Assembly: GCA_965242605.1 (NCBI GenBank) | Contig: CBDESS010000004.1 | Coordinates: 5,835 to 69,834, forward strand | DNA: 64,000 bases | DNA from: an uncultured Candidatus Binatia bacterium | GTDB lineage: Bacteria > Desulfobacterota > Binatia > Bin18 | Direction: 5' to 3' | Part shown: positions 7,104 to 51,559 of the stretch, piece after piece | Layout: every line of letters starts with the position of its first letter | How positions within the stretch are numbered: the stretch's first letter is position 1 | Translations under genes and position numbers: made by a program | Notes under the pieces: generated by a model | The model's input: only the letters and a program-made list of their open reading frames with translations | Databases searched by the model: none | Told to the model about the DNA's origin: nothing

Positions 7104-9529
7104 CCGGCCTCCTCCGGGCCGGCTGAGGCGGCCCGGGCCTCCACCGGGACCGCCGCCGCCCAGACCCGCTCGGCCCCCCGGCCCTGCCCGGTCCGCAGCC
7201 TGGTGATGGGGTAAGCTGGCAGCCGAATGGACGCCAGACAGGTGCCGGCAAAGCGCGCCGCCTGGTCTACCTGCGGGGCATAACGGGGGTGCCGCCGGAA
7301 CGCGAAATCGAGCACCTCAAAGCCCCGGGACCGGCGGGCCGCCGCGAGCACAGCCGGGTCCCGGGGTCTGACGTGCAGAAAGAAGCCGGGGGCCGTGTCC
7401 GCTGGACGACAGGGGGCCCGCAGGTAGGTCAGCGTGGTCCCGGCGAGGTACAGGGCAAAGCGCGACCGGGCCACGGGGGCACCCGCCACCGCCACCCGGT
7501 AGGCTTCGCGCACCAGGTCGGTCCCGGTGGCACCGGGAGGCGACACAGGGATGGCCACCCGCCACAGATCGGTGCCCCCGAAAGGCAGCACTTGCCTGGC
7601 TTCAATGGCCCGGCTCGGATAGGCCGGCAAGGGCAGCCGAATCAGACACTGGCCGTCCACCAGGACACCGTACCGGCTGAAGTCGAAGTACCTCTCCTCA
7701 AATCCCCACTTCCGACGCCATCGGGGCAGGTCGGCCACATCCACCGGGAAGACCTGCACCGAGAAGGACCCGCGCAGGTCCGCCGGGCCGCAGGCCACCT
7801 TCACCCACATCAGGGTCTGGTCATCCAGATACAGGTCAAAGCCCACCCGACCGACCGGCACCCCGCCCGTCACGACCCGGACCACAGCCCGATAGGCGGC
7901 CGTGGTGGCTACATCCACCCTGGCCAAGTTGGGGGCCGTCACCGTCAGGACGGTGTTATGGTAAATCTGATGGTTATAGAGGTGAGGCGCGAAGAGAGGG
8001 CCGCTAAGGCCGCGCCGCAAGTTTGAGTGGTGATCGATCACCTGAAAGTCCCCAGACGGCACCCCGCCCTCGGCGAGGACGAGGCGGCGGCGCACCGCTT
8101 TGGGAAGAATGAGCCGATTCCGGACCCCCAGACCATGCATCTCCAGCGAGATCGGTGAAGTGGGATAGCGGCGGAGGAGATGTTCCAACCCCTCCCGGTG
8201 CGTGGTTCCCCAGCGGTCCATCTCGTACCAGGTCCCCAGGTAGTCGGGCGTGCACCGGTCCACCAGGGCATTGAAATAGGCTATCTGGTGGGGATGGAGG
8301 GCCACCAGCTCGACGACCACCCCGGCCAGGCCCGCCGCCGCCAGCCCATGCATGCCCTGCCGCAACACGGCCCAGCGACAGACCGCCGCCAGCCAGCGCA
8401 GCCCGAACACTGCCAGCAGACACACCGGGGCGTACAGAAAGTAGACCTGACGCCAGCCGTTGTAAAGGTTGGCATTGACAACGAGGACGGCGACAACCGG
8501 GAGGACCAGACAGGCGACGAGCAGCAGGCCGAAGCGGACGACGGGGGCACCCAGCACGGTGCCGGGGGAGATCAAACCGCGATGCATCACGGACACTGCC
8601 CCTACCAGACTCAGCAGCAGCACCCCCGGCGGGGTGGTGATGGCAATCCAGGTCGGAAGGTAGTCCGCAGGAAGCTCCGGCCAGCGTACCGGCTCGCCCT
8701 GGAAGAGGGTCACAGCGTGAATCGGGTGCTGGGAGAGGACTGCCACGGCCTCACCTAGCGCCAAGGGGTCACCCCACAGGTAGGGCGAGACCGCGTACAG
8801 CGTCAACACACTGACTGCCACGAACACCGCCCCCGTGCTCAGAACGTGCCAGCGTGCCGCCCGCCCTGCCGCCCCCACCAGGTCGCCCGCCCGCAGGACC
8901 ACCACCACAACGAACAGCAGCACGCCCATGATGCGCAGGTTGGTCGCTACCCCCACCCCGACCCCACACAGTGCGAACGCCCCAAGGCTCTCCCGCCGCC
9001 ATGCCCGGTGAATCAGGAACAGGGCAACCAGGAACAGCACCAGGAAGGGGATGTCCTTGGTATTAACGAAGGAGTAAGCGTAGAGCCGGGGATGGAGCAC
9101 GAACAGCAGCAGGGCGACCAGGGCCAGCCAGCGGCTGTGGAAGAGGTGGTACACCAGCCGGGCACAGCAGTACCCACCGGCCAGAAAGAAGAGGTGGGTC
9201 AGCAGATGGCGGCTCAGGTAGATGGCCCGGCTGTCGGTGAGACCCAGCAGCCGCTCAACGAGCACCAGCGGCACCTCGAAGACGACGCCATAGAACCGAT
9301 TGTGGGGAAGACCGGGGGGCAGCAGAACCTCAGCGTCCCCCAGCAGGTAGTTGACCGCCGCATGGCCGTGTCCGTACCGGAGCTCTTCGTCCCGCGAAAC
9401 GCCGTAGTCGTCAAGGACGGCCACGCCCATGACGGCCAAGACCGTCAGGGCCAGGAGTACGCTGCGGGCAAGCGCGACATCGCCTGCTCCCTGGCCCCGC
9501 TTCGGGGGGGACACCGGGATACCAGTCAC
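7100..9529 (-). CDS. GT-C-fold membrane glycosyltransferase paralog, 809 aa
   Basis: 809-aa ORF. Conserved N-terminal TM domain. C-terminal domain more diverged from copies 2/3 and closer to copy 5. Confidence 0.8.
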   Translation of the reverse strand: MTGIPVSPPKRGQGAGDVALARSVLLALTVLAVMGVAVLDDYGVSRDEELRYGHGHAAVNYLLGDAEVLLPPGLPHNRFYGVVFEVPLVLVERLLGLTDSRAIYLSRHLLTHLFFLAGGYCCARLVYHLFHSRWLALVALLLFVLHPRLYAYSFVNTKDIPFLVLFLVALFLIHRAWRRESLGAFALCGVGVGVATNLRIMGVLLFVVVVVLRAGDLVGAAGRAARWHVLSTGAVFVAVSVLTLYAVSPYLWGDPLALGEAVAVLSQHPIHAVTLFQGEPVRWPELPADYLPTWIAITTPPGVLLLSLVGAVSVMHRGLISPGTVLGAPVVRFGLLLVACLVLPVVAVLVVNANLYNGWRQVYFLYAPVCLLAVFGLRWLAAVCRWAVLRQGMHGLAAAGLAGVVVELVALHPHQIAYFNALVDRCTPDYLGTWYEMDRWGTTHREGLEHLLRRYPTSPISLEMHGLGVRNRLILPKAVRRRLVLAEGGVPSGDFQVIDHHSNLRRGLSGPLFAPHLYNHQIYHNTVLTVTAPNLARVDVATTAAYRAVVRVVTGGVPVGRVGFDLYLDDQTLMWVKVACGPADLRGSFSVQVFPVDVADLPRWRRKWGFEERYFDFSRYGVLVDGQCLIRLPLPAYPSRAIEARQVLPFGGTDLWRVAIPVSPPGATGTDLVREAYRVAVAGAPVARSRFALYLAGTTLTYLRAPCRPADTAPGFFLHVRPRDPAVLAAARRSRGFEVLDFAFRRHPRYAPQVDQAARFAGTCLASIRLPAYPITRLRTGQGRGAERVWAAAVPVEARAASAGPEEAG

Positions 9530-11997
9530 TCGGCCTCCTCCGGGCCGACTGAGGAGGCCCGGGCCTCCACCCGGGCCGCCGCCGCCCAGGCCCGCTCGGC
9601 CCCCTGGCCCTGCCCGGTCCGCAGCCCGGCGATGGGGTAAGCCGGCAGCCGAATGGCCGCCAGACAGGTACCAGCGAAGAACACCGCCTGGTCTACCTGC
9701 GGGGTGCGACGGGAGTGCCGCCGGAACGCGAAATCGAGCACCTCAAAGCCCCGGGGCCGGCGGGCCGCAGCGAGCACGGCCGGGTCCCGTGGCATGATGT
9801 GCAGAAAGAAGCCGGGGGCCGTGTCCGCCGGACGACAGGGGGCCCGCAGGTAGGTCAAGGCGGTCCCGTCAAGGTACAAGGCAAAGTGCGACCGGGCCAC
9901 GGGGGGACCCGCCACCGTCGCCCGGTAGGCCGTACGCACCAGGTCGGTCGCGGTGGCACCGGGGGGCGACACAGGAATGGCCACCCGCCACAGATCGGCA
10001 CCCGTGGAAGGAGCCACTTGACCGGCTTCGATGGCCCGGATCGGGTAGGCTGGCAAGGGCAGCCGGAGCAGACACCGGCCGTCCACCCGGACGCCGTACC
10101 GGCTGAAGTCGAAGTACCTCCCCTCAAAGCCCCACTTCCGACGCCACCGAGGCAGATCGGCCACGGCCGCCGGAAAGACCTGCACCGAGAAGGAGCGCCC
10201 GCGCGTGTCCGCTGGGCCGCAGGCCGCCTTCACCCACATCAAAGTCTGGCCATCCAGATACAGGTCAAAGCCCGACCGACCGACCGGCACCCCACCCGTC
10301 ACGACCCGGACCACGGCCCGATAGGCGGCCGTGGTGGCCGCGTCTACCCGGGCCGGGTTGAGGGCCGTCACCGTCAGGATGGTGTTGTGATAAATCTGGC
10401 GGGTATAGAGGCTGGGTGCGAAGAGGGGACCGCTAAGGCCGCGCCGCAAGTTTGAGTGGTGATCGATCACCCGAAAGTCCCCTGGCGGCGCACCGCCCTC
10501 GGCGAGGACGAGGAGGCGGCGCGCCGCTTTGGGAAGAATGAGCCAGTTTTGGCGCACCTGGCCGATATCCAGACCGCGTGTCTCCACCGAAACCGGTGAG
10601 GTGGGATAGCGGTGGAGGAGATGTTCCAACCCCTCTCGGTATGTGGTTCCCCAGCGCTCCATCTCGTACTGGGTCCCCAGGTATTCGGGCGTGCGCCGGT
10701 CCACCACGGCGTTGAAATAGGCCATCTGGTGAGGATGAAGGCCCACCAACTCGACGACCACCCCGGCCAGACCCGCTGCGGCCAGCGCGTGGACGCCCGG
10801 CCGCAGCCCCGGCCAGGGGCAGACCGCCGCCAGCCAGCGCAGCCCGAACACTGCCAGCAGACACAGCGGGGCGTACAGAAAGTAGACATGACGCCAGTCC
10901 ATGTAGAGGTTGGCATTGACGACGAGGACGGCGACAACCGGGAGCACCAGACAGGCGACGAACAGCAGCCCGAAGCGGGCGACGGGGTCGCCCAGCACGG
11001 TACCAGGGGAGCGCAGGCTGCGATGCATCACGGACACTGCCCCTGCCAGACTCAGCAGCAGCACCCCCGGCGGGGTGGTGATGGCAATCCAGGTCGGAAG
11101 GTAGTCCGCGGGGATATGCGGCCAGCGCACCGGCTCGCCCTGGAAGAGGGTCGCAAGGTGAATCGGGTGCTGGGAGAGGACTGCCACGGCCTCACCTAGC
11201 GCCAAGGGGTCACCCCACAGGTAGGGCGAGACCGCGTACAGCGTCAATACACTGGCCACCACGAACACCGCCCCCGTGCTCAGAACGTGCCAGCGCGCCG
11301 CCGCCCCCACCAGGTCGCCCGCCCGCAGGACCACCACCACAACGAACAGCAGCACGCCCATGATACGCAGGTTGGTCGCTACCCCCACCCCCACCCCGCA
11401 CAGTGCGAACGCCCCAAGGCTCTCCCGCCGCCACGCCCGGTGAATCAGGAACAGGGCACCCAGGAACATCACCAGGAAGGGGATGTCCTTGGTATTAACG
11501 AAGGAGTAAGCGTAGAGCCGGGGATGGAGCACGAACAGCAGCAGGGCGACCAGGGCCAGCCAGCGGCTGTGGAAGAGGTGGTACACCAGCCGGGCACAGC
11601 AGTAGCCACCGGCCAGAAAGAAGAGGTGGGTCAGCAGATGGCGGCTCAGGTAGATGGCCCGGCTGTCGGTGAGGCCCAGCAGCCGCTCAACGAGCACCAG
11701 CGGCACCTCGAAGACGATGCCGTAGAACCGGTTGGCGGGACCACCAGGGAGCAGCAGGACCTCGGCGTCTCCCAGCAGGTAGTTGACCGCCGCATGGCCG
11801 ATCCGGCGCTGAGGGGACTCCTCGTCCGCCCCTACGCCGTAGTCGTCAAGGACGGCCACGCCCACGACGGCAAAGACCGCCAGGGCCAGGAGCGCACTGC
11901 GGGCGAGCACGCCGGCGACTGCTCCCTGGCCCTGCTTCGGGGGGGACGGCGGGATACCATTCACTCGGCCCCCTCCTTGCCGGGGTCGGAAGACCAC
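9526..11997 (-). CDS. GT-C-fold membrane glycosyltransferase paralog, the last copy of the array. Likely true start GTG at 11964 rather than 11997.
   Basis: 823-aa ORF. The paralog-conserved N-terminus begins at …VNGIPPSPPKQGQ. GTG at 11964..11962 overlaps the TGA (11961-11963) of the upstream GT2-remnant ORF, the same GTGA junction as inside the array. Confidence 0.8.
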   Translation of the reverse strand: MVFRPRQGGGRVNGIPPSPPKQGQGAVAGVLARSALLALAVFAVVGVAVLDDYGVGADEESPQRRIGHAAVNYLLGDAEVLLLPGGPANRFYGIVFEVPLVLVERLLGLTDSRAIYLSRHLLTHLFFLAGGYCCARLVYHLFHSRWLALVALLLFVLHPRLYAYSFVNTKDIPFLVMFLGALFLIHRAWRRESLGAFALCGVGVGVATNLRIMGVLLFVVVVVLRAGDLVGAAARWHVLSTGAVFVVASVLTLYAVSPYLWGDPLALGEAVAVLSQHPIHLATLFQGEPVRWPHIPADYLPTWIAITTPPGVLLLSLAGAVSVMHRSLRSPGTVLGDPVARFGLLFVACLVLPVVAVLVVNANLYMDWRHVYFLYAPLCLLAVFGLRWLAAVCPWPGLRPGVHALAAAGLAGVVVELVGLHPHQMAYFNAVVDRRTPEYLGTQYEMERWGTTYREGLEHLLHRYPTSPVSVETRGLDIGQVRQNWLILPKAARRLLVLAEGGAPPGDFRVIDHHSNLRRGLSGPLFAPSLYTRQIYHNTILTVTALNPARVDAATTAAYRAVVRVVTGGVPVGRSGFDLYLDGQTLMWVKAACGPADTRGRSFSVQVFPAAVADLPRWRRKWGFEGRYFDFSRYGVRVDGRCLLRLPLPAYPIRAIEAGQVAPSTGADLWRVAIPVSPPGATATDLVRTAYRATVAGPPVARSHFALYLDGTALTYLRAPCRPADTAPGFFLHIMPRDPAVLAAARRPRGFEVLDFAFRRHSRRTPQVDQAVFFAGTCLAAIRLPAYPIAGLRTGQGQGAERAWAAAARVEARASSVGPEEAE

Positions 11998-12245
11998 AGG
12001 TCAAGACCGTAGCACCTGCCCGCCCGCCAACCCCTCCATCCCAGTTCGGGAAGTTGCTCAAGGGCAGCCACCAGACAGCGGTGCATCTCGGGCAGGACCG
12101 CTTCCTCATTGAAGCAGGGGACAACTACAGACAGGAGACTACAGTTTCTAACACTGAATCGGGGCGGCAGCAGGCGGTGAAGAGATCGTGCCATCAGCCC
12201 TATCAGTGCCGGGAAGTATACGTCTGGGAAATCTCTATGAGACAT
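11961..12245 (-). pseudogene. Remnant of a GT2 (Dpm1/ArnC-like polyprenyl-phosphate sugar synthase type) glycosyltransferase. Only the N-terminal ~67 aa remain, fused to a few codons resembling a GT-C 3' tail.
   Basis: 94-aa ORF contains the classic GT2 N-terminal motif LSVVVPCFNEEAVLPE…LEQLPE. It then lacks the expected (D)YEII.VDDGS motif in any frame. It terminates on the GTGA junction of the first array gene. Confidence 0.5.
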
Positions 12246-12925
12246 TCAAACAAGTGGCTGGCTTCGACCGTGGGGATAGGCTCTGGCACCGTCTGGTGTA
12301 TCAGTTCCTTGTCGAAGAACCCGTCAAGCGAACCGGCCAATCCAATGGAGCGAGCAAATGCGGTCAGGGGGGCAACAATGGTCCGATGGAACGCCTCCGG
12401 CCTCCAGTGCAGCACGGGGAACCGCAACTTTTCGTGCAAGAGAACAAGTTCGGTATTATACGCACACCACAGCCGCAGACCATCGTCCCTCTCGACCGTA
12501 AGCGAGCCGTGTCTAGCGGCGAGCGACCGGATGACCAGAGACGGGTGCCGAAATATCGCTATGGGGCGCGCACCGGGTACCAACCGCAGCCATCCCTCCA
12601 CGGTCCACATGGTGCGGGGATCCTTGAATCCCCAGGGACGTGCGGCTTCAAGATAGGGAAAAATCAGTGCCTTGCCTTGTCTTTCGCTCTTGTGATCCCA
12701 CTTGACTTGGCCACTTGGCGGGTCCCTCCAGGAGGCACCCGCCTTGGTCAACAGCGCATCGTTCAACTCCCGTATGGCTTCATTTTCCTTATTGCCCTTT
12801 TTGTTGAAAGGGGCTTGGTGATTAACATCGCCCAGATACAACCCTCCAGCCTCTAGGCTGCCGAGCAGAAGTGATGTTCCACTCCGGTGCATCCCCAAAA
12901 CGATCACACATGGAGACTGTGACAT
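12203..12925 (-). CDS. Sulfotransferase family protein (PAPS-dependent)
   Basis: 240 aa. N-terminal VIVLGMHRSGTSLL matches the 5'-phosphosulfate-binding loop of sulfotransferases. Plus-strand ORFs here are antisense shadows. Confidence 0.7.
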   Translation of the reverse strand: MSQSPCVIVLGMHRSGTSLLLGSLEAGGLYLGDVNHQAPFNKKGNKENEAIRELNDALLTKAGASWRDPPSGQVKWDHKSERQGKALIFPYLEAARPWGFKDPRTMWTVEGWLRLVPGARPIAIFRHPSLVIRSLAARHGSLTVERDDGLRLWCAYNTELVLLHEKLRFPVLHWRPEAFHRTIVAPLTAFARSIGLAGSLDGFFDKELIHQTVPEPIPTVEASHLFECLIEISQTYTSRH

Positions 12926-12966
12926 CTCACCCCCCCCTCTCCTCTCGGCGGAATCCGGGAATCGGT

Positions 12967-13857
12967 CTATTCTTCGCGCAAGAGAAACCGCCGGGCGGCA
13001 GGGTGCATATGTCCGACGAAAACGGGGTCTACGGATTCGTGAGCTTCATACGGCTTGCCGTATATTGTCTCATATTCCTCCTGGTAGAGCTCCCACGGGT
13101 GCTGACCCATGGGGACATTCGTTGCAAAACCGCCGTGGAATTGATGGAATGTTCCTTCGCCCAACAGACAGACAGGTGTCAAAGCGTCGTCCAGAACCGC
13201 ACGCTGGAAGAAATCATGAGTGGCCAAGCCGCCTGCCGGTCTCTGGAATGCTTCATTGAAACCACCCATGTAAAAAAAACGGTTACGGCCGATCGTGAGA
13301 CAACTGCTCTCCGCTATCGTCCCGAAATAGCCACCGCGGGATGAGAGGGCCAGGCAGGAGATCTTGAACAGCCGATAGCCGTCGCTTCGCCAATCAATAT
13401 CGTGAAGAAGCCTGTCCTCGGTATTCTGGTCATATCCCTTGAGCATGGAATCGTTCTGTATCTCGTCGCCCAGGTGGAATCCTGGGGTATAGATGAAAGG
13501 ATTTGTGAATCGTTCGGTACAGAAACGCATCCATCCAAGTATGCCGGGGCTGCAAATACGGGCCCCATCAATCAGGAGCATGACATAGGGGGATTTTGCC
13601 CGGCGCACGCCGTAATTCACGGCAGACACCGGGGATACCGACGAGGTCGGATAGGAGATGTACTGAAACTGCCGTCCGAAACGCTTGACCTCGGCTTTGG
13701 ACAGGGGGACCGAAGAACCGTTGTCTATGGCGATCACTTCGTAAGGAAAGCTCACCTGCTGATATTCGGCGGACAGGGAAAAGAGCGTCCTTGGCGCTTC
13801 GCGTCTCATATTGTAGAAGATCACCACGACGGAGAGCTTGGGTCTTTTGAAAATCAT
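12967..13857 (-). CDS. GT2 family glycosyltransferase. The ORF extends to 13956 but the likely start is the internal Met at 13857.
   Basis: MIFKRPKLSVVVIFYNMRREAPRTLFSL…YEVIAIDNGSS are GT2 N-terminal/DxD-type motifs. 4-nt gap to the sulfotransferase start region. Confidence 0.8.
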   Translation of the reverse strand: MIFKRPKLSVVVIFYNMRREAPRTLFSLSAEYQQVSFPYEVIAIDNGSSVPLSKAEVKRFGRQFQYISYPTSSVSPVSAVNYGVRRAKSPYVMLLIDGARICSPGILGWMRFCTERFTNPFIYTPGFHLGDEIQNDSMLKGYDQNTEDRLLHDIDWRSDGYRLFKISCLALSSRGGYFGTIAESSCLTIGRNRFFYMGGFNEAFQRPAGGLATHDFFQRAVLDDALTPVCLLGEGTFHQFHGGFATNVPMGQHPWELYQEEYETIYGKPYEAHESVDPVFVGHMHPAARRFLLREE

Positions 13858-13924
13858 GACGCACTCCCCTGTGACCGCAATAATCTGATAGCGGCGACAT
13901 CTCCCATTCCCATTTTTCTGCTCG

Positions 13925-15775
13925 TCAATCCAACTCAAACGCCTCTGCGTGTTCATGCCGGAGCGCCGGGTTCTGATCCTCTTTGCGCAAAAAACAGTTA
14001 CCGATGGCTAGACAATCAAGGTCGGTACCCATGAAACAGCGAAAGGCGTCCGCGGGGGTGCACACGATAGGCTCGCCGCGCACATTGAAGCTGGTGTTCA
14101 CGATGACCGGGCAGCCCGTTCTGGCCTTGAACGCTTCAAGCAGCGCGGAGTAGCGGGGGTTGGTCTCAGGATGGACGGTCTGCACGCGGGCGGAATAATC
14201 GACATGGGTTACCGCGGGAATGTCCGAGCGCGGGATGTGCAACAGATCAACGCCGAACAGGGCCCGCTGCGCCTCGGTCGTCGCCTTGCGTCGCTCTGGC
14301 TTCACGGCCGCGACCAGCAGCATATAGGGGCTGTCGCGGTCAAGCTCGAACCAGTCAGCCACATCGGCCCGCAGCACGCTCGGCGCAAAGGGGCGGAAGG
14401 ACTCGCGGTGTTTGACCTTGAGGTTGAGCGTCTTTTGCATGGCGGGCGAACGTGCGTCGGCCAGGATGGAACGGTTGCCCAGGGCACGCGGCCCAAACTC
14501 CATCCGCCCCTGAAACCAGCCCAGCGCTTTGCCGGCGGCCAGCGACTCGGCCGTAACGTTGATCAGCGCGTCGGTCGTCAAGGTCTCGTGGCACGCGCCG
14601 GCCGCGTCAAGCGCCGCGCAGATCTCCTTCGGGCTGAACTCGGGGCCGAGAAAAGCCCCGCGCATGGCATCGTCAGGTGCTCCGCCGCTGGTCTCGCCGC
14701 AATGGCGCGGCTCACCAAACAGACGATGGCTTGCCAACAGCGCCGCGCCCAATGCCCCTCCGGCGTCGCCCGCCGCCGGCTGCACCCAGATGTCCGCAAA
14801 CTTCCCGTCTCGCACCACCTTGCCGTTAGCCACGCAGTTGAGCGCCACGCCGCCGGCCAGACACAGATACGGGATGCCGGTCTCCGCCCGCAGCGAGCGG
14901 GTCAGCCGCAGCACCGCTTCCTCAACCACCGCCTGGGCCGAGGCCGCCAAGTCCATGTGCCGCTGCGTCACCGGCTCCTGCGGCGTCCGTGCTGGACCGC
15001 CGAACAGCGCGTCGAAGCGGCCGTTGGTCATCGTCAGCCCGGTGCAGTAGTCAAAGTAGTCAAGGTTGAGGCGGAAGGTACCGTCGGCCTTCAGGTCGAT
15101 CAGGTGGTCAAGAATAGTGCGGGCGTAGGTCGGCTCGCCATAGGGGGCCAGGCCCATCAGCTTGTATTCGCCGGAGTTGACCTTGAAGCCGGTGTACAGG
15201 GTGAAGGCCGAGTAGAGCAGCCCCAGGGAGTGCGGGAAGTGGAGCTCTCGGATGATCTCCAACTCGTTGCCGTGGCCGATGCCGACCGAGGTGGTGGCCC
15301 ATTCGCCCACCCCGTCCAGGGTCAGGACTACCGCGTCGCGGAACGGAGACGGATAGAACGCGCTCGCCGCATGCGCCTGGTGGTGCTCGGCGAACAGCAG
15401 CTTGGTGTTCCAGTCCACATCCGGGGCGAGTCCTTGCAGTTTCCGGCGCAGCAGGTTTTTCTGAAACAGCTTCTCTTTGATCCACAGCGGGGCGGCCATG
15501 CTGAAGGAGCGGAAGCCGCGCGGCGCAAAGGCCACACAGGTTTCGAGCAGCCGCTCGAACTTGAGGAAGGGTTTGTCGTAGAACGCCACCCGGTCAATGG
15601 CCGCGGGGGGAAGGCCAGCCTGAGCGAGACAGGAGGCAATGGCCTTGGCCGGATAGCCGGAATCGTGCTTCTTGCGGGTGAAGCGCTCCTCCTGGGCCGC
15701 GGCGACGATCCGCCCACCGTCCACCACAGCTGCGGCGCTGTCGTGATAGAAGGCTGAGATACCAAGAACGCGCAT
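13925..15775 (-). CDS. Carbamoyltransferase, NodU/CmcH/TobZ (HypF-like) family, 616 aa
   Basis: Full-length match to the carbamoyltransferase family: MRVLGISAFYHDSAAA…, YSARVQTVHPETNPRY, NTSFNVRGEPIV. Confidence 0.85.
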   Translation of the reverse strand: MRVLGISAFYHDSAAAVVDGGRIVAAAQEERFTRKKHDSGYPAKAIASCLAQAGLPPAAIDRVAFYDKPFLKFERLLETCVAFAPRGFRSFSMAAPLWIKEKLFQKNLLRRKLQGLAPDVDWNTKLLFAEHHQAHAASAFYPSPFRDAVVLTLDGVGEWATTSVGIGHGNELEIIRELHFPHSLGLLYSAFTLYTGFKVNSGEYKLMGLAPYGEPTYARTILDHLIDLKADGTFRLNLDYFDYCTGLTMTNGRFDALFGGPARTPQEPVTQRHMDLAASAQAVVEEAVLRLTRSLRAETGIPYLCLAGGVALNCVANGKVVRDGKFADIWVQPAAGDAGGALGAALLASHRLFGEPRHCGETSGGAPDDAMRGAFLGPEFSPKEICAALDAAGACHETLTTDALINVTAESLAAGKALGWFQGRMEFGPRALGNRSILADARSPAMQKTLNLKVKHRESFRPFAPSVLRADVADWFELDRDSPYMLLVAAVKPERRKATTEAQRALFGVDLLHIPRSDIPAVTHVDYSARVQTVHPETNPRYSALLEAFKARTGCPVIVNTSFNVRGEPIVCTPADAFRCFMGTDLDCLAIGNCFLRKEDQNPALRHEHAEAFELD

Positions 15776-15778
15776 GGT

Positions 15779-15928
15779 TCAAAAGAGCGTGTATATCATC
15801 GGCGCGACCGCGCTGGTCTGGGCCAGCACAATCAGCCAGCCCAGCACCAGCATGGTGACGATGGCCGGCAGCAGCCAGTATTTCTTGCGCACGCGCAAAA
15901 AGGTCCAGAGTTCGCACAGAAACGACAT
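15779..15928 (-). CDS. SxtK-like small membrane peptide (49 aa). Not in the supplied ORF track because it is below the length cut-off.
   Basis: Manual translation of the minus strand gives MSFLCELWTFLRVRKKYWLLPAIVTMLVLGWLIVLAQTSAVAPMIYTLF*. This matches the conserved small-peptide family found next to carbamoyltransferases (SxtK-like). ATG at 15928..15926, TGA at 15781..15779, 3 nt before the carbamoyltransferase start. Confidence 0.6.
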   Translation of the reverse strand: MSFLCELWTFLRVRKKYWLLPAIVTMLVLGWLIVLAQTSAVAPMIYTLF

Positions 15929-15936
15929 GACACACC

Positions 15937-16371
15937 TCAGAACTGGTTTTGCATGGACTCGGGTTCTGGCCCTGGCGGCTCGCGGTGGAGCCAGTAACTG
16001 GGCACGGTCGGGTCGGCGCGCAGACGCAGCGGGTCCTTGCCCAGGGCACGCATGATGAGGCCGGTCGGCGTCACCACCGCGAAGTAGATCATGGCCAGGA
16101 TGACCGGGCTGACGAGGCGGTGGAGGAGCAGGCCGAGCCTGAACCAGACCGTGTTGAACGGGGCCAGCGCCTCGGCCTTGACCAGCGTCACCGCCAGCAC
16201 CACACCGGCAACGGCCAGCGCCCAGCCGCGGGGCGGCCTGCCGCCGAGCAGCGGCAACAGACCGATCACGACAAACAGGGCGACAAGGACGGCACCAAAA
16301 CCGCGCTCTGAGCTCCTTGCAACCGCTTCTTCGTCTGTCAGTCGCTCGTGGGACTGCATCCGTTTCGGCAT
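15937..16371 (-). CDS. SxtJ-like small membrane protein (144 aa)
   Basis: 144-aa ORF with two hydrophobic segments. Size and position (directly upstream of the SxtK-like peptide and the carbamoyltransferase) match the sxtJ-sxtK-carbamoyltransferase triad. Confidence 0.55.
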   Translation of the reverse strand: MPKRMQSHERLTDEEAVARSSERGFGAVLVALFVVIGLLPLLGGRPPRGWALAVAGVVLAVTLVKAEALAPFNTVWFRLGLLLHRLVSPVILAMIYFAVVTPTGLIMRALGKDPLRLRADPTVPSYWLHREPPGPEPESMQNQF

Positions 16372-16620
16372 ATCAAAGGTCCTTCTCTTCTGGAGTCCAG
16401 CGGGTTGACATCCAGCGGTCGAACGCGCTACTCCCTGCCAGAGGCAGTAAGTCTATCAAGAACGCAGGTCTTAGCAAACCGGTCGTATGGTCATCCATGC
16501 GAACCGTCGTTTTTTTCATCTATTGACGATGGCGAACACAAGGCGAACACAAGGAAGAAGGCAGCTAAGCAGGTCATCTACCGCTACGGCGATAAGCGCA
16601 AGAACAACCCGCATGTCGGT

Positions 16621-17250
16621 ATGGTCGATACGGTCAGCGACGGGGTAGAAGGCCAGACAGCATGGGCCTGTGACCCGCACATTGACCCGACACTCAACTT
16701 TGACTCTGCCCGGGCCGGCATTGAGCGGCTGATTGATGACGCCCCGGTCATGCGTGAGGCCCTGGAGCGGATCAAACGCCTGCACGCGCCCTATCTCAAC
16801 TGGACTGGCAAGGCTGAGCGCACCAGCTTTGCGGTGGATACCGTGTCGCTGCATGTCCACGAGTGGATTGACCCGGCGACGATTCTGGCCACGATGCAGA
16901 AGCGCGATCGGAGGGCAAAGGGCAGCGGGGCTGGCGAGTTCCAACCCGACCTGTTTGCCGCCCCGTTTGAGAACCTGCCGCTACGCGAGGCGATTGACTT
17001 CTACCAGCATGAGCGCGACTGGGCCAACCGGCTGATTGCCAGCGATTCGCTGCTGGTGATGAACTCGCTCTTGCACAAAGAAAGCATGGCCGGCCAAGTG
17101 CGGATGATCTACATTGATCCGCCCTACGGCATCAGATACGGCTCGAACTTCCAGCCCTTCACCAACAAGCGGGATGTCGCGGATTCTGATCGGGACGAAG
17201 ATTTCACAAATGAACCTGAGACGACCGCGGCATCGAAAGCCTCAAAGTGA
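16621..17250 (+). pseudogene. Type III R-M Mod (beta-class N6-adenine MTase) N-terminal fragment. Contains motif IV DPPY but lacks the TRD and motif I.
   Basis: …LNWTGKAERT… and LIASDSLLVMNSLL…VRMIYIDPPYGIRYGSNFQPF align with the EcoP15I Mod N-terminus (SLNWLGKSYARLL…VKMIYIDPPYNTGKDGFVYND). The ORF stops ~20 aa after DPPY. The listed ORF start 16348 overlaps the SxtJ-like gene, so the start is probably ATG 16621. Confidence 0.6.
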
Positions 17251-17348
17251 TGGACCTCCCCGACTGAACCAGCCGCCTCTTTCCTCGTCTTTCCTCTCCA
17301 CCCGGGAGAGGGTCAAGGTGAGGGCAACACGCCAGTGGAGACACCGCC

Positions 17349-18752
17349 ATGAAATTCGTATTCAAACACCTCGGCCCTATCCACAACGCCGAACTGGAGC
17401 TCGGCGACCTGACCATCCTCGCCGGCCGCAACAACACCGGCAAGACCTATATGGCCTATACGCTGTACGGGTTTCTTAAATTATGGAGACACGGATCTGA
17501 GTTCTGGCGAATTATTCATAGCTTGACCGAAGAATCTCTCTTACCGGACTTCAGAGAGAAAAAAACGCGGCTCAAAACATTCATAGAGGAGGGACAGGTG
17601 AAATGGCGCGTAGACCGGGAGACGCTTCATTCGCAGCAGAAATCAATTATGCAAAAAGTGTCGCAGTCCTTCTCAAAAGAAGAACTGGCGAACATGTTTA
17701 GCGCTTCGGATGAGGATTTCGAGAGCGCGTCCATCGGGGTCGTGGTCAAAGACCAGTTTTCCGACCATACGTCCAAAACTCTTGAATTGTCTCATGGGGA
17801 CGAGCTCACAATCACATATAGCGGCGGTGAAATATGTATCTCCAGAAACGAACCGCTCAAGAAGCTTCCATCTAGTTCCGCTATCGGGTTCTCGCTCACA
17901 TATCTTTATCTCTCATTTCTTTTTCCAGAAATTCTTAGCCTCAGCCCCCTTATCCTCTCCGCGGAACGTTTCAGCATATCCCTTTTTTACAAGGAGCTGG
18001 ACTTCACAAAGAATCGCTTAGTAGAGATGCTTCAAGAGAACAGAAAAAAAGACTTCCCCCTTTCGCGCGTGATGATCGACAGGGTAGCGAGTCGGTACGC
18101 TCTGCCCATCAGGGACAACATTGACTACACCAGGAATATTCCTGAGCTTCAAAAGCGACGAAGTAAACTCTATGACTCGAAATTGTTTGAGGACATCAAG
18201 GATATGCTCGGAGGATACTACAGGAGCTCAGACGATGATATCCGGTTCATCTCAAAGGCTCGGAAAAAAAGACGTTTTGATATCCCCCTCCATATCGCTT
18301 CGTCTTCGGCCCGTGGCTTGTCCGACCTGTATTTCTTCCTGCGACATGTCGCCGAAAAGAATCAACTCCTCATCATTGACGAGCCGGAAAGTCATCTGGA
18401 CACGGCCAATCAGATTCAGTTCGCGCGTCTGCTGGCACGAGCCGTCCACGCCGGGCTGAAAGTCCTGATTACCACCCACAGCGACTACATCGTCAAGGAA
18501 ATCAACAACCTGCTCATGCTGAGCAGGGATTTCAAAGACAAACCCGAGGTACTCAAAAAATACGGCTACTCAGAGCACGACTTCCTGAATCCCGCTTCGG
18601 TCCGGGCCTATGTGGCGGAAAACAACAGCCTGACACGGTGTACGGTTGACCCCTTCGGCATTGACATGCCGGTCTTTGACATAACCATTGATGCGATCAA
18701 CCGTGTTACCAGGGAACTTGAGATCCGGCTGACGCACGAAGAAGAAGAGTGA
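17349..18752 (+). CDS. ABC-type/AAA_21-like (OLD/PtuA/AriA/RloA-like) ATPase, 467 aa
   Basis: Walker A GRNNTGKTY, Walker B/D-loop LLIIDEPESHLD, H-loop TTHSDY. GC drops to ~45% from ~17460. RBS GGAGA upstream of the ATG. Confidence 0.85.
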   Translation: MKFVFKHLGPIHNAELELGDLTILAGRNNTGKTYMAYTLYGFLKLWRHGSEFWRIIHSLTEESLLPDFREKKTRLKTFIEEGQVKWRVDRETLHSQQKSIMQKVSQSFSKEELANMFSASDEDFESASIGVVVKDQFSDHTSKTLELSHGDELTITYSGGEICISRNEPLKKLPSSSAIGFSLTYLYLSFLFPEILSLSPLILSAERFSISLFYKELDFTKNRLVEMLQENRKKDFPLSRVMIDRVASRYALPIRDNIDYTRNIPELQKRRSKLYDSKLFEDIKDMLGGYYRSSDDDIRFISKARKKRRFDIPLHIASSSARGLSDLYFFLRHVAEKNQLLIIDEPESHLDTANQIQFARLLARAVHAGLKVLITTHSDYIVKEINNLLMLSRDFKDKPEVLKKYGYSEHDFLNPASVRAYVAENNSLTRCTVDPFGIDMPVFDITIDAINRVTRELEIRLTHEEEE

Positions 18753-18753
18753 A

Positions 18754-19230
18754 GTGGAGTTGATCTCTCAATTGAAGGCCATCCTGAAGCCAGAATTAAT
18801 TCAAGAAGCAGAGTCAGATGATCCCTTCATCCTTGAGGAGTCTCCTAAAAACCAAGAAGGCACAAGGGTTGAGCTTCACGGTGTTTCAGCGCCTTTCCTG
18901 GCTGTGTGCGTGAAGAAGCTCAATCACCTGTCAGCTTTGCAGCAAGGCGCGTGGCGACAAATCTGTGACTATCTACTGATTGGGCAATCAGATGGCAACG
19001 ATTATGCTGTTTTTGTCGAGTTGAAGAAGACGCTGCGAGAAGACGAAAAGCCCCGGGAGCAGCTCAGACGCTCGCTGCCGCTTTTGGAATACCTGCTTTC
19101 TGTATGCGCGGTTGAGTACAGCAGCGGAAAATCCAACCTGACAATACGCTATGTCCATATTGCCGAACGATTGAACACCAGGTTTGCCAAGCAGGGAGGG
19201 AAAATTGAAATGACGCTATTGAAGCCGGGC
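18754..19230 (+). CDS. Small PD-(D/E)xK- or Toprim-like putative nuclease partner of the ATPase (RloB/AriB-like role). The 3' end is uncertain: the ORF reads on to 19491 into high-GC sequence.
   Basis: GTG start 1 nt after the ATPase TGA. Motifs ILEESPKNQEG … GQSDGNDYAVFVELKK (D…ExK / DxxD). Low GC continues to ~19215. No in-frame stop at the GC transition, so the gene may be 3'-disrupted. Confidence 0.5.
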
Positions 19231-20640
19231 TGGTCAAAACGCTTCGCGTGGTCGTGCGGGACGACGCCCTGGCCAACGCCCAGAGCTACACAAGCAAGCT
19301 CTACCACCTCTACAATGAAGCCGAGGTCAAAGAGGTCCTCAACCGCAGGGCCGAGCCGCACGAACCCCTGCCGGACCTGGTTCAGAAAGCCTATGCCCTG
19401 CTGGCCTACGACTGGCGGGAGACCGCCCGGCAATGGACCATTGAAAGCGCGGCCCGGGTGGAGCGCTTTTTTACAGCCGGAGACTGCTTGATCCCCGAAA
19501 CCCGCCAGCCCGACCGTACCCTGCAGGTAGACTCCCGGGTGCTGGAGAAAGCCGAACGGGGCGAATCTGCCGCAGCCAACAAGGACTACGCCCAACGCCG
19601 GCGCGCCGTTCTCATGGCCGCCGGTCCGGAGACGACAAGCGCGAAGCGCTGCTCAGGGCCAGCTAGGAAGAGCAACTGCGCAGCCTGGTCGATACAGTCG
19701 GCAAACGCGGTCAGGCCGGCCAGCGCCTCCAGAATGTGATCTCGGTCGCCATGCTGTCAGAGGGCTGGGACGCGGCCAATGTGACCCACATCATGGGCCG
19801 GCGGGCCTTTACCAGCCAGTTGTTATGCGAGCAGGTCATTGGCCGAGGGCTGCGCCGGGTGTCCTGTGAGGTGGACAAGGAAGGCCGCTTCCTGCCCGAA
19901 TATGTCAATATCTTTGGCATACCGCTGTCCATCTTCCAGGAGCTCGGCCAAGGTGGGGACGCCCCGCCACCACCCAAGCCCAGCGTACAGGGCGAGGTCG
20001 TGCCGGGCCGCAATCAGTTCAAGATCCGCTGGCCAAATGTGGCCCGAGTCGAAACAGCGCCGCGGCCAAGCCTGCTCCAAGCCTGCTTATGGACTGGGAG
20101 ACGGTAGAGCCGCTGACCCTGGACCCCATGCAGACGCCTATCTCGGCTGAACTCGTCCCGGCGCTGGCCGGCCAGACCGACCTGTCTGAAGTCAGCGCCA
20201 TTGAGTTGGAACGCGAGGTCGGGGAGCTTCAACTGAAAATCTGCTCTTCCGGGCCGCCGGCAAGCTGTATGTGCAGAGCGCCGACGCCTGCTCGGGCAAC
20301 TGCCAATACTTGGCAGTACAGATGTTGTCTTTGCCTCGGCACATATCCGGGATGTGGTCATGGGGCATGCGTCATTGCGGATCAGACAGAGAGATGCTCC
20401 ATGAACACGGCTCAACAAAAGATGCCGCTGAGCTTGCAGAACTTCCCGGCCTCAGTCCCGCCGACGGGGCTGAAGTCCAACTCCGTAGCGACCCGAACGA
20501 CGTAATCATTGAGGCCGGACACAAATCACCCATCAGCAGATCGCAAAACTGGCCCGCACCTCCCGACCACGGGTCACGGCGATTCTCAGCCGCAACACAA
20601 AGGACGCATCCACCGACCTGATGATCCGCGCATCATGGCC
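19209..20640 (+). pseudogene. Type III R-M Res (SF2 helicase-nuclease) C-terminal remnant, multiply frameshifted
   Basis: Helicase motif V …AMLSEGWDAANVT and motif VI QVIGRGLRRV. Coding continuity requires switching between the ORF frames 19248..19739, 19736..20107 and 20089..20505. No N-terminal helicase motifs I-III are present. Confidence 0.55.
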
Positions 20641-20648
20641 ACTTGAGG

Positions 20649-21545
20649 CTATCGGGCCACGCTGACGTTCTCAGCCGCAGCCTCTTCCTGAATGTCAAGC
20701 GTTGTCACCCGGCGCAGTTCGCGGGGGTATGTGGTGTCCTCAAAGGGCCGGGCGCGGTGCATGGTGGCCCGGTTGTCGTAGACGACCAGGTCGCCGACCC
20801 GCCACCTGTGCCGATAGACAAAGGCCGGCTGGGTGGCGTGCTCAATCAGCTCCAGCAGCAGCAGCCGGCCTTCGGGCAGCGGCCAGTCCATGATCTGCGA
20901 GGCGTGGGCGGCAATGTAGAGCGACTTGCGCCCTGAGCCTGGCAGGGTCCGAACCAGGGGGTGGACCGCGCCCCTCAGCATCTCCTGCTCTTGTGGCGAG
21001 AACGCAAAGCCCAGGACTTGGCGCGAGTGGGCGATTGAATGGTGGGCCCGCAGGCCCTCCAGCCGGGCTTTCAGCTCGGGTGAGAGGGCGTCGTAGGCCG
21101 CCCGCATATCGGCATATTCGGTATCGGCCCCGACCGGCGGGATGACCCGGGCGAACAGCATGGAATAGCGCCCGGGCGGGTCCTGGAAGGAGGCGTCGGT
21201 GTGCCACAGCCGGTTGCCCAGACCGTACATGCGCCGGCGGTCGTCGGCCGGCTGAATCTGACCGTCGTCGGTCAGGTTTGAGACATCGGCCAGAGCCTCG
21301 TTGCCGAAGCGGTTCTTTTTGAGGGCGCTGATGCCGGTCTTAGTGTGCAGCTCGCCGTCCAGCCGACGGGCAAAGGCCAGGTGCTCCTCATCGCTGAAGC
21401 GCTGGCCCCGGAAGACCAGCAGCGCGTATGCGTCCATGCCGGCCCGGAGTTCGGCCAGAGTTTGCCGGTCGTGAACCCGGCGGAGATCAAGCCCGGCCAC
21501 CTCAGCGGCAAAATGGGGGTGCAGTTTCCGAAATGTTACAGCCAT
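20649..21545 (-). CDS. TauD/TfdA family Fe(II)/2-oxoglutarate-dependent dioxygenase
   Basis: 298 aa. WHTDASF…HR motifs typical of TauD/TfdA. Confidence 0.85.
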   Translation of the reverse strand: MAVTFRKLHPHFAAEVAGLDLRRVHDRQTLAELRAGMDAYALLVFRGQRFSDEEHLAFARRLDGELHTKTGISALKKNRFGNEALADVSNLTDDGQIQPADDRRRMYGLGNRLWHTDASFQDPPGRYSMLFARVIPPVGADTEYADMRAAYDALSPELKARLEGLRAHHSIAHSRQVLGFAFSPQEQEMLRGAVHPLVRTLPGSGRKSLYIAAHASQIMDWPLPEGRLLLLELIEHATQPAFVYRHRWRVGDLVVYDNRATMHRARPFEDTTYPRELRRVTTLDIQEEAAAENVSVAR

Positions 21546-21703
21546 GCCGGCCCCTCCTTGTCATGCGGCCCGCTCAGGATGACAGAAACCTACGGTTTTC
21601 CAGGCCCGGGGTCAACGAAGACGGCTGCCGATTCTGACGGGCATAGCCCCGCCCGGCCTGAACCGCTATGCTCTGCTGTCAAAAGACTATACAGGAGGTC
21701 GGT

Positions 21704-22579
21704 ATGGATATCGGAAAAGTTGGCATCTGGTTTTTTCTGGACAGCATGAGCGCACCGGACAGCGCGGCCTTTGCCCAATCGGTCGAAAAAGCCGGCTATA
21801 AGACGCTGTGGATTCCTGAGGCGGTCGGGCGTGAGCCGTTTGCCCACACCGCCTATCTGCTGAGCAACACGGAAACCCTCAACCTGGCCACTGGGATTGC
21901 CAATATCTGGGCGCGGGACGCCTATACGATGGCCACGGCCACCAACACCGTCGCCGAGCTGTCGGGCGGCCGCTTTGTGCTGGGCATTGGCGTCAGCCAT
22001 AAACCGCTGGTCTCCAACCTGCGCGGCCACAGCTACGACAAGCCCTACAGCTATATGAAGGACTACCTGCCCAAACTCAAGGATGTCTTCTATCAGGCCC
22101 CCAAGCCGCCTGAGCCGGCCCCGATCCTCATCGCCGCCCTGCACCCCAAGATGCTGGCCCTGTCCGCGGAGCAGGCCCAGGGCACGCATACCTATTTTGT
22201 GCCGCCCGAGCATACGGCCAAGGTCCGGGCCCAGATTGGTCCCGAGCCGTGGATCTGCGCCGCCCAGGCCGTTATTCTGGAAACAGACGCGACCAAGGCA
22301 CGGGCTGCCGCCCGGCACTACATGAAGACCTATGTCCCCCGGCTGCCCAATTACACCAGGAACCTGAAAAATCTGGGCTGGCCGGACGAAGCCTTTGAAG
22401 ACGGCTGTAGCGACGCCCTCGTCGATGCCATTGTCGCCTGGGGGAGCGAGGAAAAAGTCCAGGATCGCATTGACGCCCATCTCAAAGCCGGCGCGACCCA
22501 TGTGTGCCTGCTGCCGATTCGAGCTAACGACGAAGCCCTGCCCGACCCGCGCGTTGTTGAAGCCTTCGCCCAGCGCTAA
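21704..22579 (+). CDS. LLM-class (luciferase-like) F420/flavin-dependent oxidoreductase
   Basis: MDIGKVGIWF… LLM fold. AGGAGG RBS 7 nt upstream of ATG 21704. The ORF track start 21668 is an upstream in-frame extension. Confidence 0.8.
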   Translation: MDIGKVGIWFFLDSMSAPDSAAFAQSVEKAGYKTLWIPEAVGREPFAHTAYLLSNTETLNLATGIANIWARDAYTMATATNTVAELSGGRFVLGIGVSHKPLVSNLRGHSYDKPYSYMKDYLPKLKDVFYQAPKPPEPAPILIAALHPKMLALSAEQAQGTHTYFVPPEHTAKVRAQIGPEPWICAAQAVILETDATKARAAARHYMKTYVPRLPNYTRNLKNLGWPDEAFEDGCSDALVDAIVAWGSEEKVQDRIDAHLKAGATHVCLLPIRANDEALPDPRVVEAFAQR

Positions 22580-22913
22580 ACGCGGCCAGATGGACCAGGA
22601 ACAGAGAAAGTTTACGCCAGGAGGTGTTTAGGATTCAGCCACAGACACAGGGGGGCAAGCAAGGCTGTCATACGACCTGCTGATCGGCAATGGGGTGGAG
22701 CCGCAGAACGGCTCGGCGTAGATATCGACCGGGCCGGGATGCTGCCATATCTCTGGCGAACTTATAGAAAACCGGGAAATTAATTGTCATGTTTTCCGGG
22801 GAAAGCCAGCGACAACCCTCCGCACAATCACCCCAACTCCAAACAGCCCAGCCCGTCATGAGTCCGGGCCAGACGTGTTTTTCCGGGACTGACAGGCCGC
22901 CGGCCGCCGAACC

Positions 22914-50706: not shown

Positions 50707-50707
50707 G

Positions 50708-51559
50708 TCAGTGCCCCGCTCCAAACTCTCGCAGATATTCGGCCAGAGCGTCAAGTTCGGTGTCACGGAATGTCACCACGTTCTGGCTGATACCAGAAAT
50801 CCTTGTCCGGGAGAAATCCCACCCGTGAAGACAGCACTTGAGACATTCGCGCACATAAGACTGGGCCAATTGATCCATAGTGTTGGCAGTGGCCCCGCCG
50901 GTAATCTCGGTGTCTGCCTGGCGTATCCGCCGGGCCAATTGGCCCATAGTGTTGGCAGTGGCCCCGCCGGTAATCCTGCTCACATGAATATAGCGTTGCC
51001 GCACAAAGGTGTCTAACTCGCTCTTATTCCCAAGCATCGTACCAATGCAGCACCTCTGGAATACGTCGTCTGGTCTGTCGAGATTTGTCGCAGCACCCCC
51101 GTGCAGAAGGACCATAGCCACATCCTGCATTTCCCGTGTGAGTTGTTCAGCGTTTACGAGCCTCGTCCCATCAACTGCCAGATTACGATTTGTCCATTTC
51201 ATATCCGTACTGAGCGACTGGAACCGATAGGAACATCTGCTGCCGCGCCAGATGAAACTCATGACTCGCTCAGGAAAAAAATTCTCAATTTCCCTCCCTA
51301 TACACTGTAAGAGTTCGCCTCCAATGTCTGTGAGCACCATGAGATGCTTGAGAAAAAGATTCCCCGCCATCCCCGATGTAGCGTCTAGTACCGATATCCA
51401 CGAAGTAGGCGACGAATCGGCTACATACAGGATGCCTATGAATTTCTCCTGGCTGTCAATGAGGCGTGGTATGACGCTGCTCTGCTGAGACCGATCTGTA
51501 AGGCTGTCAGGCCAGAATTTGACGGCCCTTGCCTCAAGATCACCCAAAGAGCGCGACAT
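50708..51559 (-). CDS. Hypothetical 283-aa protein translationally coupled to the MTase (candidate restriction/effector component). Contains an in-frame 23-aa tandem duplication.
   Basis: Lower-GC ORF with plausible protein composition. Internal repeat ITGGATANTMGQLARRIRQADTE / ITGGATANTMDQLAQSYVRECLK. Confidence 0.5.
   Translation of the reverse strand: MSRSLGDLEARAVKFWPDSLTDRSQQSSVIPRLIDSQEKFIGILYVADSSPTSWISVLDATSGMAGNLFLKHLMVLTDIGGELLQCIGREIENFFPERVMSFIWRGSRCSYRFQSLSTDMKWTNRNLAVDGTRLVNAEQLTREMQDVAMVLLHGGAATNLDRPDDVFQRCCIGTMLGNKSELDTFVRQRYIHVSRITGGATANTMGQLARRIRQADTEITGGATANTMDQLAQSYVRECLKCCLHGWDFSRTRISGISQNVVTFRDTELDALAEYLREFGAGH
50862..50976. repeat. 46-bp near-perfect direct repeat x2 with a 23-bp spacer (69-bp period, in-frame) inside the 283-aa gene
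   Basis: gggccaattgatccatagtgttggcagtggccccgccggtaatctc … gggccaattggcccatagtgttggcagtggccccgccggtaatcct. Confidence 0.8.

Follow-up and report, generated by a model that had tools for sequence, protein, structure and literature searches.

PD-T4-4 is an experimentally validated anti-phage system from an integrative and conjugative element (ICE) of E. coli ECOR58 (Vassallo et al. 2022; PMC9519451). It has been classed as a PD-(D/E)xK nuclease together with a P-loop NTPase, and forms higher-order complexes (bioRxiv 10.1101/2025.07.10.664194). PDC-M47 is a PADLOC candidate that was derived by 'guilt-by-embedding' (Payne et al. 2024; bioRxiv 10.1101/2024.01.29.577857, supplementary file 8); the systems covered by that study were Hma, BREX, DISARM and Type I restriction-modification (RM), and host operons of the BPTD_3080 type were not among them (bioRxiv 10.1101/2024.01.29.577857). 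Here we describe a pair of adjacent genes, A and B, related to both of these families, in a 64,000-nucleotide stretch of DNA from an uncultured Candidatus Binatia bacterium (contig CBDESS010000004.1; the whole stretch is referred to as the window). The pair is on the forward strand, as are all features of this locus given below. The reading we favour, with a probability of roughly 80%, is that a PD-T4-4/PDC-M47-type pair sits natively between the modification (mod) and restriction (res) genes of a BPTD_3080-type operon, that this four-gene locus is decaying, and that the module in the window is most likely non-functional.

The only mechanistic data for the PD-T4-4/WonAB group are supplied by WonAB, from the Vibrio cholerae WASA-1 prophage; mutants of its ATPase and of its nuclease abolish defence, abortive infection proceeds via translation shut-down, and the authors group WonAB with PD-T4-4 (PMC12137116). 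The relation of WonAB to the pair in the window rests on that grouping: in both, a sensor ATPase of the ATP-binding cassette (ABC) type goes with a small variant PD-(D/E)xK nuclease, the difference being that WonAB is prophage-borne and lies outside RM operons. The same pairing of an ATPase with a restriction endonuclease (REase) is found in an operon listed with WonAB, the 'OLD-ABC ATPase + novel REase' of Krishnan et al. 2020.

Gene A (17349 to 18752) encodes a protein of 467 amino acids which matches the PADLOC hidden Markov model (HMM) PD-T4-4_A (PDLC04033) along its whole length, residues 1-457 aligning with 1-454 of the 460 HMM positions (E 1.4e-105), and PDC-M47A with an E of 1.2e-89. 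Its Pfam matches are AAA_15 and AAA_21, and far weaker, partial matches in PADLOC were to AriA (3e-22), PtuA (3.7e-9) and GajA (5e-10), and also to Old. The initial annotation of the window, made from the sequence alone, had credited this protein with a complete set of ATPase motifs. Walker A (G26-T33, with K32), Walker B (D344/E345) and the H-loop (H377) could indeed be located, and A keeps all 51 of the 51 invariant columns in a 27-member family alignment that includes the E. coli and Bernardetia plasmid homologues. The same annotation was right that a second open reading frame (ORF) follows after a single nucleotide; ORF B starts with GTG one nucleotide past the stop codon of A and runs from 18754 to 19491 (245 amino acids). 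A scan of 16200-20700 for promoters and terminators gave no signals above shuffled expectation.

The part of ORF B with family homology (18754 to 19208, the first ~152 codons) was matched by PDC-M47B at E 6.9e-5 and by PD-T4-4_B at E 0.0068 (PADLOC HMMs). For P0001, an intact relative of B that is 96% identical, the corresponding values are 2.2e-6 and 2.6e-4, and the B homologue of locus L015 matches PDC-M47B at 4e-11. When a profile of 81 B homologues was aligned with PD-T4-4_B from E. coli, hhalign returned a probability of 93.7% (E 1.9e-7, 19% identity) and the CD...(E/D)LK motifs fell in register. The E. coli comparator is a bona fide PD-T4-4 pair on plasmid pSCU-105-5, with matches of its own at 3e-123 (A) and 1e-43 (B). 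In Enterobacteriaceae, very small Col-type plasmids carry such bona fide pairs as their main cargo; these are pSCU-105-5 itself (L083, 4.8 kb) and related 4.2-4.5 kb plasmids of Klebsiella and E. coli. A model of B (AlphaFold2; mean predicted local distance difference test, pLDDT, 83; predicted TM-score 0.84) has an REase-type fold, and the nuclease signature is conserved as D72 (ICDYLL) followed by E89-L-K91 (VELKK), that is, D...E-x-K. This is the catalytic signature in place of the 'ILEE' that had been picked out as a nuclease motif, which is not catalytic. Nuclease-fold similarity of the partner, which had been named as the point to check, is thus present in both profile and model.

Searches of B against Pfam and NCBIfam gave no match, and a sequence search of the PDB returned generic ABC matches only for A and none for B. 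Toprim, HNH, DUF4276 and DUF4435 readings of B were ruled out by the Pfam, NCBIfam and PADLOC searches together with the REase fold. The suggestion of a Toprim-like partner was therefore dropped, while the observation that the partner has no HNH (PtuB) match held in Pfam and PADLOC. These results also separate the pair from the better known systems whose ABC ATPase clade it has in common (PARIS, AriA/AriB; Septu, PtuA/PtuB; Gabija; OLD). In PARIS, AriB is a Toprim/DUF4435 protein, whereas B lacks a Pfam or PADLOC match to AriB or Toprim and has the REase fold instead; in Septu, PtuB is an HNH protein, for which B has no match, and the PtuA match of A is partial.

Relatives were recovered with A from 80 loci (L001-L080; 37-79% ATPase identity). 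B lies directly 3' of A in 76 of these, so that the co-occurrence in other genomes on which the pairing had been staked is found, and the B family as a whole comprises 692 clusters at 50% identity (E <= 1e-3). Among viral contigs, relatives of A were only 26-33% identical. Because A matches PD-T4-4_A and PDC-M47A over its full length and B matches PD-T4-4_B and PDC-M47B, the pair is assigned on sequence to the known PD-T4-4/PDC-M47 family, as a predicted OLD-type ABC ATPase with a putative small PD-(D/E)xK nuclease, B being a divergent member. A defence-type pair of this composition had been proposed at the outset, and both the family HMM matches and the fold of B support it; the further idea that it might be a distinct or undescribed variant does not stand beside E-values of 1e-105 and 1e-89 for A and the place of B within the PD-T4-4_B/PDC-M47B superfamily.

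Compared directly with PD-T4-4, the gene order is the same, an ABC ATPase of ~460 amino acids and then, close by, a PD-(D/E)xK protein of ~180-200, and the E of A (1e-105) is about equal to that of the E. coli plasmid copy on the same HMM (3e-109). The pairs differ in that identity to the E. coli plasmid copies is only ~30% for A and ~19% for B, that B is truncated here, and that the setting is a Type III-like RM operon of uncultured, apparently sponge-associated bacteria rather than an ICE or plasmid. PDC-M47 provides the best HMM match of B (7e-5) and a strong one for A (1e-89), and, as here, it is a pair embedded in other defence operons; the hosts from which it was derived, however, are BREX, DISARM and Type I RM systems, whereas the host here is a BPTD_3080-type mod-res operon.

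It is clear that B is not complete in the window. Its homologues are 177-196 amino acids long, and ~60% of the 245-residue ORF aligns to them; family homology stops at residue ~153 (...KQGGKIEMT). A near-identical locus, L081 (Logan SRR18681978), has ~98.6% DNA identity to window positions 18472-19208 and the identity stops abruptly after 19208. In L081 B is intact, and residues 4-43 of Res begin ~60 bp downstream. From 19209 onward, the window in frame +3 reads NDAIEAGLVKTLRVVVRDD, which corresponds to a BPTD_3080-family Res from residue 343/344 onwards. The 245-residue ORF is therefore best described as a chimera of a truncated B and res DNA: its read-through tail (19209 to 19491, 92 codons) is out-of-frame res sequence, rich in Pro, Thr, Ser and Arg and with no family homology, and it takes the place of the C-terminal ~25-30 residues of B. 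An earlier caution that the ORF might be disrupted at its 3' end near ~19215, reading on to 19491, has thus proved justified.

The lost segment is a confident part of the modelled fold (pLDDT 84-92), made up of strands 150-156, 159-165 and 168-170 and helix 171-176. It carries residues that are conserved among the 81 sequences (E154 in 67, Y156 in 74, I159 in 68, F164 in 67 and L174 in 72), and of the 150 best representatives of the B family nearly all run on to ~178-180 in a profile of 181 positions. In the surviving part of B, moreover, residue 52, which is Arg in 63 of the 81 sequences, has become Cys (R52C). Since the effector is truncated, lacking these strands and the helix, the copy in the window is most likely non-functional, and the proposal that it is a candidate abortive-infection or defence module holds for the family but probably not for this copy as a working system.

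Could A and the chimeric B nonetheless form an active abortive-infection system? We regard this as unlikely, although it is the alternative that survives best. A is intact with all of its invariant residues, B keeps D72, E89, K91, Q103 and R106/S107 within a frame that stays open to 19491, and in two other loci (L006 and L033) A and B persist after total loss of res, which implies that the pair can be maintained without the RM genes. Such activity would, however, have to be achieved with three confident beta-strands and a helix replaced by 92 residues rich in Pro, Thr, Ser and Arg, in a family whose best representatives are nearly all full length, and with the R52C change besides.

The flanks of the pair are the remnants of a dead Type III-like (BPTD_3080-type) RM operon. 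The 5' remnant of mod (about 16540 to 17219, within an ORF at 16348 to 17250) was identified by tblastn and by a PADLOC MTase_III match (E 4e-26); it covers amino acids ~103-338, including the DPPY motif, and is 63% identical to the 1080-residue Mod of Sphingobium pSF1 over residues 103-338 and 78% identical to that of L076 over residues 1-240 (tblastn). The last 15 codons of mod and its stop (17220 to 17267) read DDRGIESLKVMDLPD and lie in a different frame from the 5' remnant; they correspond to the conserved C-terminus of Mod, which ends in DDRGIESLKVMDIPD in L076 and in DDRGIESIKIMNLE in pSF1, with 93% identity (tblastn) between the window and residues 1019-1033 of L076 Mod. Between these codons and A lies the native spacer (17268 to 17348), aligned by blastn to L076 continuously from the 3' end of mod into A. 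The spacer contains a hairpin resembling a repetitive extragenic palindromic (REP) element, formed by CCTCTCC (17293-17299) and GGAGAGG (17305-17311), five nucleotides apart, and followed by GGTGAGGG; the whole element spans 17293-17324. L076 has a REP-like element at ~7932-7965 and a second, inverted copy elsewhere, at ~6593-6624.

Downstream, tblastn with the Res proteins of L076 (929 amino acids) and pSF1 traced a res pseudogene from 19209 to 20333. It consists of four segments, corresponding to residues 344-498 (19209-19625, frame +3), 501-649 (19631-20077, frame +2), 646-699 (20077-20238, frame +1) and 699-731 (20235-20333, frame +3). Three frameshifts separate them, 343 codons at the start and ~200 at the end are gone, and there is an internal gap of 16 amino acids relative to the pSF1 reference, so that residues 344-731 of 929 are all that is left and in no single frame. 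The remnant matches the NCBIfam BPTD_3080 family of restriction endonucleases at E 1e-15 (NF046055, 56.5 bits against a cutoff of 800); a literature search on BPTD_3080 found no papers. With mod reduced to two mutually out-of-frame pieces and res broken in this way, the description of the locus as a dead Type III RM system was sound.

Two separate deletions can be placed. The first would have removed ~2.4 kb within mod, from amino acid ~339 to ~1065, with a breakpoint at 17220 +/- 2 and GA microhomology; the second would have taken out ~1.1 kb between codon ~154 of B and codon 343 of res, and its breakpoint (19208/19209) shows TGA microhomology. It might be supposed that chimeric joining during assembly produced one or both junctions and that the real operon is intact, given that the source is apparently a metagenome assembly and that an intact allele, 98.6% identical, exists in another sample. 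This seems very improbable to us. Assemblers do not join across overlaps of 2-4 nucleotides, res is truncated at its 3' end and has three independent frameshifts as well, and parallel decay is seen in L001 (a mod deletion and a frameshifted res) and in L006 and L033 (res lost).

These last loci belong to a group of Binatia loci (L001, L003, L006, L014, L033 and L079) which share the TauD and LLM-oxidoreductase genes found downstream of res in the window (20387-22581) at 77-86% DNA identity, and therefore occupy the same chromosomal site. In L001 mod has undergone an independent internal deletion (amino acids 362 to 1038) and res is frameshifted; in L006 and L033 res is wholly lost and A-B abuts the TauD region. 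On account of these cases decay of the locus is recurrent, and the window represents one stage of a series. In three loci (L076, L079 and L075) A itself is in fragments.

The arrangement from which the window would have decayed was examined by mapping reference Mod and Res pairs onto the 80 loci. The pairs used were those of Sphingobium pSF1, annotated as a site-specific DNA-methyltransferase and a BPTD_3080 family restriction endonuclease, and of the closer L076. The order mod, A, B, res was found in 15 of the 80, usually with full-length flanking genes, and mod and/or res of the same family occurred within 8 kb in 22. In the embedded loci mod ends ~0-90 bp from the start of A, or a TIR gene stands between them, and res usually starts ~20-100 bp past B, although in four loci (L042, L061, L066 and L069) an extra 1.5-4 kb of DNA intervenes. 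They come from metagenome-assembled genomes (MAGs) labelled Binatia, Caldilineaceae, Nitrospirales, several Gammaproteobacteria (e.g. Ca. Spongiihabitans), Ca. Poriferihabitaceae and others. In the other 58 loci the neighbours are housekeeping genes of various kinds, from which it follows that A-B also exists as a free-standing module.

A fall in GC from ~67% to ~45% had been described for the window. The dip is real but milder: GC is 0.494 in A and 0.495 in the family-homologous part of B, against 0.596 in the mod remnant, 0.64 in the res remnant and 0.624 in the whole window, and the 300-bp minimum is ~0.46 between flanks of 0.60-0.70. More important, in each of the 13 embedded loci that were measured (among them L002, L029, L076, L015, L022 and L064) the cassette was lower in GC than the mod and res genes beside it, by 2-20 points and whatever the host phylum. 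GC at third codon positions (GC3) was likewise lower in all but L027, where that of A equals or exceeds that of mod and res. Because the lower GC recurs in all 13 loci, the GC step belongs to the family as a whole, and the dip was rejected as a sign of recent insertion in the window. Together with the greater divergence of A-B, it is compatible with either cassette swapping or compositional constraint.

These results bear on the remaining alternative, in which a low-GC A-B cassette was horizontally inserted and replaced the middle of the mod-res operon in one event, as the initial annotation implied when it placed the cassette exactly where the middle of the operon is missing. The GC step at both cassette ends fits this, and identity between the window and L076 (49-79% by segment in A and ~56% in B, against 76-80% in mod and res) is compatible with a past cassette exchange, but we consider it the least probable of the alternatives, contradicted as it is by the last 15 mod codons and native spacer retained upstream of A, by L081 with its intact B and then the start of res, by the conservation of mod-A-B-res across phyla with lower cassette GC throughout, and by junctions that are both plain microhomology deletions of 2-4 nucleotides, one of them cutting into B itself. 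The conserved native order is thus mod-A-B-res, with two separate deletions flanking the cassette.

The ATPase relatives (37-79% identity) come almost all from MAGs of many phyla whose names suggest sponges: Poribacteria, Poriferisodalis, Spongiihabitans, Porisulfidus, Poriferihabitaceae, Binatia, Caldilineaceae, Latescibacterota and others. This suggests a wide horizontal spread of the ATPase clade within one habitat, the sponge association being drawn from the names.

Taken together, the history of the locus may be reconstructed as follows. Gene B would have been translationally coupled to A within the mod-A-B-res operon. A microhomology-mediated deletion probably took ~2.4 kb out of mod, and a second, of ~1.1 kb, would have fused the truncated B to out-of-frame res DNA; res appears to have been broken further by three frameshifts and the loss of its 3' end, leaving A alone intact. 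In intact relatives, by analogy with WonAB, PD-T4-4 and PARIS, a dimer of A may bind and control B; infection would be sensed, ATP-dependent activation would follow, and B would cleave nucleic acid so that the infection is aborted. Since B is without part of its fold and mod and res are destroyed, the locus in the window would be a relic from which only A might still be expressed.

Several observations weigh against this reading. Foldseek with B gave no match in the PDB at E <= 1e-3, and the individual HMM scores of B are weak as well. The catalytic D...ExK core is present in the truncated B, so residual activity of the chimera is possible. A is fully intact with no sign of decay, which could reflect either a recent truncation or continuing selection on A; between the window and L081 there are 2 synonymous and 2 non-synonymous substitutions in A and 3 and 3 in B, too few for a test of selection. 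Both deletions are known from one assembly only, and the relatives whose mechanism is invoked here are only ~30% (A) and ~19% (B) identical.

PrrC, of the EcoprrI system, is an anticodon nuclease whose gene lies within a Type Ic RM operon. Like the pair in the window it is an ABC-type ATPase-linked nuclease nested on the same strand between modification and restriction genes, and it sets a precedent for a second-line guard of an RM system. The embedding logic is all that the two have in common: PrrC (like RloC) differs in being a single fused polypeptide with an anticodon-nuclease domain, and its host is Type I, where here there are two genes, an effector of REase fold and a Type III-like host. 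By this analogy it is conceivable, though on balance we doubt it, that mod-A-B-res is a functional four-gene unit in which A-B acts as a PrrC-like guard, firing when anti-restriction proteins of a phage disable the Type III-like restriction enzyme, and that the junction between the mod 3' end and the res 5' end is a hotspot of cassette exchange. If the unit is such a compound system, then the window would be a snapshot of one disintegrating; if the junction is such a hotspot, this would explain both the consistently lower cassette GC and the spread over many apparently sponge-associated phyla.

Two sets of loci lend support to this reading. In L061 (positions 5530-16218; Ca. Poriferihabitaceae MAG CBDBJR010000002.1) a full-length mod is followed by three defence cassettes, each of which is in turn followed by a repeated mod 3' end of ~95 codons (mod amino acids ~984-1079). 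One cassette is a PD-T4-4-like A with a 175-residue partner, another is IetA/IetS (E 6e-138 and 4e-256) and the remaining one a 161-residue ORF with a DUF1828/PDC-M24B-like protein; res is present as a short 5' fragment only (13987-14229), inside the array. This suggests that the repeated mod 3' ends would act as homology arms for cassette exchange. In six further loci (L015, L016, L025, L027, L022 and L028) a TIR gene lies between mod and A; that of L015 (7119-7946) matches PADLOC PDC-S35 at E 5e-81 and Pfam CAP12-PCTIR_TIR at E 1e-40. The RM operons of those loci therefore hold at least two embedded defence modules.

As a degraded member of a validated family, the copy in the window is itself of little weight and does not merit annotation as a system that is new or active. 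The comparative result is the more useful one: at least six bacterial lineages have PD-T4-4/PDC-M47-type pairs natively placed between BPTD_3080-type mod and res genes, which extends 'guilt-by-embedding' to a Type III-like host system. The arrays delimited by mod 3' ends, in at least one locus, suggest a concrete recombination mechanism for cassette swapping, and the comparison with PrrC offers a testable guard hypothesis for the PD-T4-4/WonAB family.

Elsewhere in the window, at 48961-51559 on the reverse strand, there is an apparently intact Type II RM pair. One member is a 602-residue protein matching MTase_II (E 2e-49); the other lies upstream of it in the same orientation and is a 283-residue protein matching REase_II (E 2e-44, profile positions 4-214 of 345).

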